Shown in pieces: positions 40,188 through 40,674 of a DNA stretch of 64,000 bases. The translations under genes and the position numbers were made by a program. The notes beneath the pieces were generated by a model, which was given only the letters and a program-made list of their open reading frames with translations, did no database searches and was not told where the DNA came from. Origin of the DNA: Escherichia phage BF17; the sequence record MW822008.1, one strand, 5' to 3'. Each line of letters begins with the position of its first letter. The stretch's first letter is position 1.

Positions 40188-40352
40188 ATGACACATGAAG
40201 AATGGATGAATGACATTAATTTTAGATATTCGGGTATCGGTAGTTGGAGAAAATATCATTGGGAAATCATATCAGACCCAGCAGAATACGATAAACTTAT
40301 GAATGATGAAGTGTATCCGTGGTTCTTTATTGAAATAATGGTACGATTATGA
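40188..40352 (+). CDS. MTHEEWM mini-protein, copy 1 (54 aa)
   Basis: Own translation MTHEEWMNDINFRYSGIGSWRKYHWEIISDPAEYDKLMNDEVYPWFFIEIMVRL; ATGA overlap with copy 2. Confidence 0.55.
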   Translation: MTHEEWMNDINFRYSGIGSWRKYHWEIISDPAEYDKLMNDEVYPWFFIEIMVRL

Positions 40353-40513
40353 CACATGAAGAATGGATGAATGACATTAATTTTAGATATTCGGGTATCG
40401 GTAAATGGCTAAAGTATCATTGGGAATTCATTTCAGAGCCACATCTGTATGATAAACTTATCAACGATCCAGCATATGAAATGTACTTAATTGAACTACT
40501 GGTACGAATATGA
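40349..40513 (+). CDS. MTHEEWM mini-protein, copy 2 (54 aa)
   Basis: Own translation MTHEEWMNDINFRYSGIGKWLKYHWEFISEPHLYDKLINDPAYEMYLIELLVRI; ATGA overlaps. Confidence 0.55.
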   Translation: MTHEEWMNDINFRYSGIGKWLKYHWEFISEPHLYDKLINDPAYEMYLIELLVRI

Positions 40514-40674
40514 CACATGAAGAGTGGATGAAACGCCAAAAAATAAAGTGGAATCCTTATTATCTACCATTAGATTCTAGAATGTGGGATGTTATACGTG
40601 TTAAGTGTATGTACAAAGCATATTTAAGTACTGAACTCGACGAAGAAGTACTGATGCATATCGTGCACCGATGA
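40510..40674 (+). CDS. MTHEEWM mini-protein, copy 3 (54 aa, divergent)
   Basis: Own translation MTHEEWMKRQKIKWNPYYLPLDSRMWDVIRVKCMYKAYLSTELDEEVLMHIVHR. Confidence 0.5.
   Translation: MTHEEWMKRQKIKWNPYYLPLDSRMWDVIRVKCMYKAYLSTELDEEVLMHIVHR

Follow-up and report, generated by a model that had tools for sequence, protein, structure and literature searches.

A stretch of 64,000 nucleotides (nt) from Escherichia phage BF17 (MW822008.1), hereafter the window, carries three small open reading frames (ORFs) that lie head to tail on the plus strand. These mini-genes occupy positions 40188..40352 (copy 1, subtype A1), 40349..40513 (copy 2, subtype A2), and 40510..40674 (copy 3, subtype B), and each consists of an ATG-initiated frame of 54 codons followed by a stop codon (165 nt). 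The stop codon of one copy overlaps the start codon of the next in the tetranucleotide ATGA, at 40349-40352 between copies 1 and 2 and at 40510-40513 between copies 2 and 3. All three proteins are 54 amino acid residues long and begin with MTHEEWM; their predicted isoelectric points (pI) are 4.7 for the acidic A1, 5.1 for A2, and 7.9 for B. Copies 1 and 2 show 70% protein identity and 78% DNA identity over a period of 161 nt, and copy 3 shows 25% protein identity to copy 1. An earlier inspection based on the letters of the window (hereafter the sequence-only reading) had reported the three 165-nt ORFs, their ATGA overlaps, and their common N-terminus, and these coordinates proved exact when checked against the sequence and the ORF list. 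The window comes from a jumbo coliphage of the genus Asteriusvirus (121Q/PBECO4 group). Escherichia phage vB_Ec-M-J (EcMJ) is 99.6% identical to the region, and about 45 further Asteriusvirus jumbo coliphages, including 121Q, PBECO4, phAPEC6, and G17, match it at 90-99% identity.

Two additional paralogs were found upstream on the same strand. The first (subtype C), at 38683..38853, encodes 56 residues, overlaps the preceding ORF through another ATGA, and corresponds to the fourth copy that had been proposed at this position. Copies 1-3 matched the profile hidden Markov model (HMM) of PHROG 10970 with E values of 6.6e-27, 1.4e-24, and 4.5e-26, respectively, and the copy at 38683 matched it with an E value of 4.6e-29, in every case over profile positions 1-55/56. 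When the four copies were compared with each other's profile, E values of approximately 1e-31 to 1e-33 were obtained. No further close copy was detected in the window by a profile search of every stop-to-stop segment. The second paralog, at 38501..38686, is more distant; it encodes 61 residues starting with MQPKTFDEWF and matched the profile HMM of PHROG 31562 (E 5.7e-42, positions 1-59/61). This ORF entered the family at the third iteration of a local profile search and scored an E value of 3e-18 against the converged profile, the iterated profile being the only tie between PHROG 31562 and the MTHEEW family. It is also very similar to genes in the arrays of uncultured relatives, such as the one at 8170-8337 of contig L015.

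To evaluate the coding status of the ORFs, ortholog sets for each subtype were compiled from the window and 11 isolate loci. The ratios of nonsynonymous to synonymous polymorphism (pN/pS) were 0.21, 0.34, 0.31, and 0.26 for A1, A2, B, and C, respectively, which indicate purifying selection on the protein in each ortholog group. The ORFs were intact in all 12 isolate loci. AlphaFold2 modeled copy 1 as four helices (residues 3-13, 22-28, 31-39, and 43-52) with a predicted local distance difference test score (pLDDT) of 73, and the same four-helix topology was predicted for copy 3 (pLDDT 72) despite its divergence. A Shine-Dalgarno-like AAAGG is located at 40176..40180 (plus strand), 7 nt ahead of the ATG of copy 1. 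The block containing it, TTAAAGG, is conserved in nearly all of the aligned phages (TTTAAGG in JNE01) and is kept even in TH47, in which the upstream tRNA is degenerate. Because of the pN/pS values of 0.21-0.34, the common predicted fold, the intact frames, and the retained Shine-Dalgarno sequence, the three ORFs are genuine protein-coding genes.

The opposite interpretation, in which the ORFs are spurious or decaying and the repeat is a non-coding or neutral DNA duplication, draws on the shortness of the ORFs, on a CMSTMSU record without annotation at the site, and on the metagenome contig L020, in which the B copy is truncated or frameshifted. It is contradicted by the pN/pS values, by the intact frames at all of the isolate loci, by protein-level conservation among paralogs whose DNA has strongly diverged, by the conserved Shine-Dalgarno sequence, and by the consistent predicted fold, and we consider it extremely improbable. 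The truncation in L020 was seen in one short contig.

The genes have been annotated previously. GenBank lists orthologs of copies 1-3 as hypothetical proteins (121Q gp125-127, EcMJ_472-474, and phAPEC6 gp094-096), so that the remark in the sequence-only reading that they fall below the ORF-track cutoff holds for the track used there but not for the public records; the CMSTMSU record has no annotation at the site. The start of EcMJ_472 (OQ718158; positions 3301-3447 of the extracted locus, corresponding to 40206-40352 of the window) was placed at an internal ATG, six codons past the conserved MTHEEW start that is used in 121Q and other records.

The number of genes in the array varied among isolates. 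The A1+A2+B form of the window is also present in EcMJ, 121Q, Turkey3, ph0011, G17, JNE01, TH47, and phAPEC6, which were sequenced independently. Since these assemblies carry the same three-gene array, the array is not an assembly artefact, and the possibility raised earlier that resequencing would collapse the repeat to a single copy did not materialize in the eight named phages. Arrays of two genes were found in PBECO4, UE-S1, and A4 (A1+B) and in JP4 and ELP-22 (A2+B). The search for copy-number variation in related phages that had been suggested thus yielded arrays of two or three genes in isolates. The order of A followed by B was fixed in 12 of the 12 isolate loci. Variation on a finer scale was observed in three metagenome contigs of the European Nucleotide Archive, L018, L019, and L020, which encode identical A2 and B proteins, with A1 present in L018 only; copy number is therefore polymorphic between near-identical contigs, with three genes in L018 and two in L019 and L020.

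The family as a whole is divided into at least six subtypes, two of which (D and E) occur at Asteriusvirus isolate loci and not in the window. Close copies of the PHROG 10970 type range from four in the window to six in G17. When distant members detected with the iterated profile are included, the counts are five in the window, seven in G17, and nine in JNE01, and isolate loci contain four to nine family members. Searches of 5.8 billion proteins, together with an exhaustive HMM search of 1.84 billion representatives, returned only 16-22 clusters, all composed of proteins of 43-71 residues and having neither a name nor a Pfam domain. A lone outlier among the database matches, P0031 (1052 residues), is a eukaryotic protein with internal repeats and was taken as spurious. 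A scan of IMG/VR recovered only 121Q itself, and a metagenome scan recovered only close Asteriusvirus relatives. No family member was found in the syntenic early/tRNA region of the Klebsiella Alcyoneusvirus phiKp_21. The known members of the family thus come from jumbo coliphages of the genus Asteriusvirus and from a small number of uncultured relatives, and from no other group.

The largest arrays were observed in these uncultured Rak2-like phages, at 7167-11879 of L014, 7835-12132 of L015, and 3063-6861 of L016 (Logan ERR4503900, SRR34023385, and SRR34023382, respectively). L014 is a contig of 78 kb, and L015 was derived from a contig of 108 kb. The three contigs share synteny: the array is preceded by a DUF1353 gene and followed by a tRNA cluster, and a flanking protein has 30-37% identity to Asteriusvirus and Alcyoneusvirus proteins. 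The arrays run without interruption for about 26 genes encoding 50-66 residues, directly upstream of the tRNA cluster, and L014 contains 26 consecutive genes of this kind. The converged family profile matched 17 small genes in L014 and 16 in L015. About nine of the 26 small genes in L014 gave no profile match, and these may be more divergent members or a second family.

Divergence between the copies was distributed unevenly along the genes. In every phage with three copies, the first 57 nt contain 2-8 differences between A1 and A2 and the remaining 105 nt contain 26-30. In the window, the synonymous divergence (dS) between A1 and A2 amounts to 0 over codons 1-19 and 0.59 over codons 20-54. The synonymous codon used for Thr2 tends to agree among the copies of one genome: it is ACA in all three copies of the window and of TH47, ACG in all three copies of JNE01, and ACG in A1 and A2 of 121Q. 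This pattern indicates that gene conversion makes the copies evolve in concert at their 5' ends. A2 and B are almost the same over their first 23 nt, and a block of 55 nt is common to A1 and A2. Unequal crossing-over within either stretch would add or remove exactly one in-frame gene unit of 161 nt, which matches the A1+B and A2+B variants. Whole 161-nt units have probably been duplicated and deleted in this way, through unequal recombination at the homogenized 5' ends, and repeated unit-wise tandem duplication and deletion would give rise to the differing copy number in sister phages and to the very large arrays in relatives.

Dosage amplification, which the sequence-only reading had offered as one explanation of the repeat, is not supported. 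A recent amplification was rejected in view of the 78% DNA identity between A1 and A2, the 25% protein identity between A and B, and the presence of orthologs across the genus. The copies are old paralogs (70% and 25% protein identity), each subtype having conserved orthologs with pN/pS of 0.21-0.34, and the trio is best described as an old, diverged multigene family. The other explanation offered there, rapid diversification, received partial support as regards a small gene from the occurrence of at least six subtypes, the differing copy number among sister phages, and the large arrays in relatives. For the putative effector role, sequence and fold searches gave no functional match.

The array can be compared with the accordion amplification of T-even phages, in which tifA is amplified against ToxIN, gp49.2 against OLD, and a tRNA-Tyr/segB segment against Septu (PMC13096335). 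In both cases, small early genes and segments of the tRNA region change in tandem copy number, by homologous recombination in the T-even phages and probably also here. In Asteriusvirus, HNH homing endonuclease genes are present in the tRNA region of Turkey3, JP4, and ph0011, and copy number varies between closely related genomes (two or three genes in isolates; L018 compared with L019 and L020). The T-even repeats are, however, recent, near-identical, and selected for dosage, whereas the mini-genes are ancient paralogs (A1/A2 78% at the DNA level, A/B 25% at the protein level) and each subtype has conserved orthologs under purifying selection. The HNH genes are found just after tRNA-Ser(GCU), at 6104-6446 of the Turkey3 locus, 5166-5499 of the JP4 locus, and 6095-6275 of the ph0011 locus, and the window has tRNA-Met and tRNA-Asn at this site instead. 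It is possible that HNH genes drive recombination in the tRNA region.

A second parallel is provided by Bacillus phage G, which has about 35 copies of a zinc ribbon (PMC7824862). There, as here, a small domain has been multiplied, largely in tandem, within one jumbo lineage, and tandem gene duplication is named as a route to jumbo genome growth in work cited by PMC7247149. The mini-gene products differ from the zinc ribbons in being all-helical, in having no Cys/His zinc-ribbon pattern, in belonging to another phage group, and in giving no hint of DNA binding or of any other function in the searches. Overall, the array is one more case of small, presumably early phage genes that have expanded in tandem within a single lineage.

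The expression context of the trio was examined on the plus strand. A sigma70-type promoter-like site (TTGGAA, 18-nt spacer, TG, TATAAT; 10/12 match) is located at 39951..39980, approximately 10 nt upstream of a tRNA-Ser gene with the anticodon UGA (39991..40080), which was called by ARAGORN and scored 60.1 bits with the Rfam tRNA model. It is followed at 40085..40166 by an atypical tRNA-like RNA that scored 32.6 bits with the Rfam tRNA model (RF00005; gathering score 29) and was not called as a tRNA by ARAGORN. This RNA has a 7-bp acceptor stem, a T arm, an encoded CCA, a variable region of about 20 nt, and the anticodon loop CUUCUAA (UCU); the D arm is absent, with 4 nt where the Rfam model has 15. 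The "tRNA pair" of the sequence-only reading is thus made up of one canonical tRNA-Ser(UGA) and this atypical tRNA-like RNA. The position of the mini-genes next to tRNAs is real and conserved, including in distant relatives.

The unusual allele is conserved in 121Q, A4, JNE01, PBECO4, Turkey3, and ELP-22, and it is labeled as tRNA-Leu in the 121Q record; a canonical tRNA-Arg(UCU) occupies the same site in G17, JP4, ph0011, and UE-S1. In JNE01, a compensatory change from C-G to U-A keeps pair 6 of the acceptor stem. The anticodon arm of the tRNA-like RNA duplicates, at 90% identity, the arm of the neighboring tRNA-Ser. The form of the mini-gene array was independent of the allele at this second tRNA position.

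The next sigma70-type promoter (TTGACT, 16-nt spacer, TATAAT) is found at 40684..40711, starting 10 nt past the stop codon of copy 3. When a near-consensus sigma70 promoter was defined as a match at 11 or more of the 12 positions with a spacer of 16-18 nt, the 64-kb window contained 38 such promoters on the plus strand and none on the minus strand, compared with approximately 2.2 expected per strand. The whole window thus looks like an early region read by the host RNA polymerase. No plus-strand terminator was predicted between 37000 and 44500, a range that includes the entire unit. We infer a single transcription unit consisting of the promoter, tRNA-Ser(UGA), the tRNA-like RNA, A1, A2, and B, for which 39951-39980 is the likely start and the promoter at 40684-40711 would mark the end. 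The host RNA polymerase would transcribe the mini-genes early, as the 3' part of a tRNA-led transcript from which tRNA processing would release the mini-gene mRNA. Copy 1 would then be translated from its own Shine-Dalgarno sequence, and copies 2 and 3 probably by stop/start coupling at ATGA. In the related Rak2-like phage CBB, a region of RpoD-like promoters and short hypothetical ORFs was interpreted as an early, host-takeover region (PMC5259590). The description of phAPEC6 reports an encoded sigma factor and mentions no phage RNA polymerase (PMC7247149).

The promoter downstream of copy 3 is part of a block of 43 nt, CTTGACTAAATAGTTCAGTACTGTATAATGTTTGTATCTTAAC, that is present in identical form at 40683-40725 and 41104-41146 and contains the palindrome CAGTACTG inside the promoter spacer. 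Weaker copies were found at 41483, 42244, 58377, and 62686. The block may represent a phage-specific promoter subclass or an operator.

The function of the proteins was approached through similarity searches. PHROG 10970 and PHROG 31562 are of unknown function, and neither the PHROG entries nor the GenBank records examined assign one, connect the two families, or note the variable copy number or the large arrays in uncultured phages. A Pfam scan of 53 aligned members produced isolated, weak matches of single members only (E >= 0.014), and Foldseek searches against BFVD and the PDB gave no match. An N-terminal metal-binding (X-X-His) motif was considered and rejected, as the position of His3 is occupied by K, Y, F, or R in the wider family. 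Aromatic residues are abundant in the proteins, none of which is strongly hydrophobic, and the charges are -5.3 for A1 and -4.2 for A2 (acidic) and +0.8 for B (roughly neutral). The family consists of lineage-specific, soluble, aromatic-rich proteins of about 55 residues with four predicted helices, of which A1, A2, and B are diverged and probably translationally coupled paralogs.

The reading that we favor, with a probability of roughly 50%, is that these are early cytoplasmic proteins that bind host targets and serve host takeover or anti-defence, each paralog being kept for a different target or target variant. Small early proteins of this kind are known from T-even phages: T6 Gp49.2 and T4 TifA are defence inhibitors whose copy number shifts by segmental amplification (PMC13096335). 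Several points weigh against such a role. The five window proteins had no match in Pfam, NCBIfam, or the PADLOC collection of defence proteins, and a profile search of PDB sequences returned only noise (E >= 0.4). The structure models reach no more than moderate confidence (pLDDT 72-73). An intense arms race would not be expected to leave stable orthologs under purifying selection, the early timing is read from the promoter consensus, and ATGA overlaps are common in compact phage genomes and say little about function. No Asteriusvirus expression data were found in the literature.

The near-invariance of the first six to seven residues in front of variable bodies would fit a different role, as capsid-packaged internal proteins in which MTHEEW would be a capsid-targeting sequence and the variable bodies would be injected with the DNA. 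The internal-protein (IP) locus of T4 encodes clustered, polymorphic small proteins with a short, near-invariant N-terminal capsid-targeting sequence, and the mini-genes are likewise clustered, polymorphic, and small, with a short near-invariant N-terminus. Unlike those of the T4 locus, the bodies of the mini-gene products share homology over their full extent, and the predicted fold includes the N-terminal helix. They also have no conserved protease site of the L/I-x-E type; an LxE-type site follows the motif only in subtype C (EWLDEL), A and B reading EWMNDI and EWMKRQ, respectively. Their promoters belong to the early sigma70 class. None of the phAPEC6 orthologs gp094-096 and gp099-101 is among the 62 proteins detected in the virion of that phage (PMC7247149, Table 1), although small proteins can escape gel-based liquid chromatography-tandem mass spectrometry. 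The absence of any gp09x or gp10x protein from the phAPEC6 virion largely refutes packaging, and we regard it as very improbable.

The charges and the fixed gene order are compatible with an assembly of unlike subunits that acts inside the phage program, for example as a small protein that regulates phage transcription, replication, or tRNA handling or serves as an adaptor in one of these processes. In such a hetero-oligomer, acidic A would pair with neutral-to-basic B, and translational coupling would set a fixed ratio. In the 12 isolates and the three metagenome contigs, B is never missing, closes the array, and follows one or more A copies; the ATGA coupling is conserved, the charges (A1 -5.3, A2 -4.2, B +0.8) are complementary, and each subtype is under purifying selection. 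However, either A1 or A2 can be lost, so that the stoichiometry is not fixed, and overlapping starts are generic in this genome. Subtypes C, D, E, and F are scattered, and relatives have at least 16-17 members, which fits independent binders better. A hetero-oligomer is accordingly a possible but rather unlikely alternative to independent binding of host targets.

The surroundings of the trio bear on another proposal, namely that the proteins act in tRNA biology, either by inhibiting host tRNA-cleaving defence nucleases or by assisting the maturation of phage tRNAs, as part of a combined tRNA counter-defence operon. Family members lie next to or among the genes of the tRNA cluster in all of the lineages in which they were observed (Asteriusvirus isolates, JNE01, L014, and L015), and the trio is predicted to share one transcript with tRNA-Ser and the tRNA-like RNA. 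Phage tRNAs are reported to counter tRNA-targeting defences (PMC10264068 and PMC11555353), and T6 co-amplifies anti-defence genes and tRNA genes (PMC13096335). On the other hand, co-localization may only mirror an inherited gene order in an accessory early region, and copy number does not follow the allele at the second tRNA position. Library, PHROG, and PDB searches revealed no similarity to RNA-binding, nuclease-inhibitor, or tRNA-processing families, and a role in tRNA biology appears unlikely. In a more specific and speculative form, which we hold to be distinctly doubtful, the MTHEEW family would comprise diversified small inhibitors or decoys directed against host tRNA-targeting nucleases and co-transcribed with replacement tRNAs and the UCU tRNA-like RNA that lacks a D arm, making 39951-40674 a two-layer counter-defence operon that supplies tRNA and blocks the nuclease. 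If this were true, the large arrays in relatives would mirror nuclease diversity.

Two further features of the early/tRNA region were noted. Tandem tRNA-Thr(UGU) genes are located at 43924-43997 and 44004-44077 on the plus strand, 6 nt apart; their sequences differ and their scores are equally high. Three plus-strand ORFs encoding 120-130 residues, at 36961-37353, 40743-41108, and 41876-42247, belong to different PHROGs and carry, in equivalent positions near the C-terminus, the shared block S-x-EE(D/E)EFQK(S/N)T; BLASTP gave E values of 3e-4 and 7e-3. They form a second, weak paralog set.

The genes and the PHROG family were already public without an assigned function, and no description of the family was found in the literature on Asteriusvirus, 121Q paralogs, or small paralogs of jumbo phages. 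New here are the connection of PHROG 10970 to PHROG 31562, the division into subtypes, the polymorphic copy number together with the concerted evolution of the 5' ends, the very large size of the arrays in uncultured phages, and the predicted co-transcription with tRNAs. The result describes annotated hypothetical genes correctly and in finer detail and does not amount to a new mechanism. If the proteins act on the host, as in the reading favored above, the family would constitute a compact, naturally diversified library of binders of about 55 residues from a group of jumbo coliphages in therapeutic use, and variation in its copy number might account in part for differences in host range. The family also illustrates clearly how a jumbo genome gains and loses single genes by way of conserved 5' "joints" and gene conversion.

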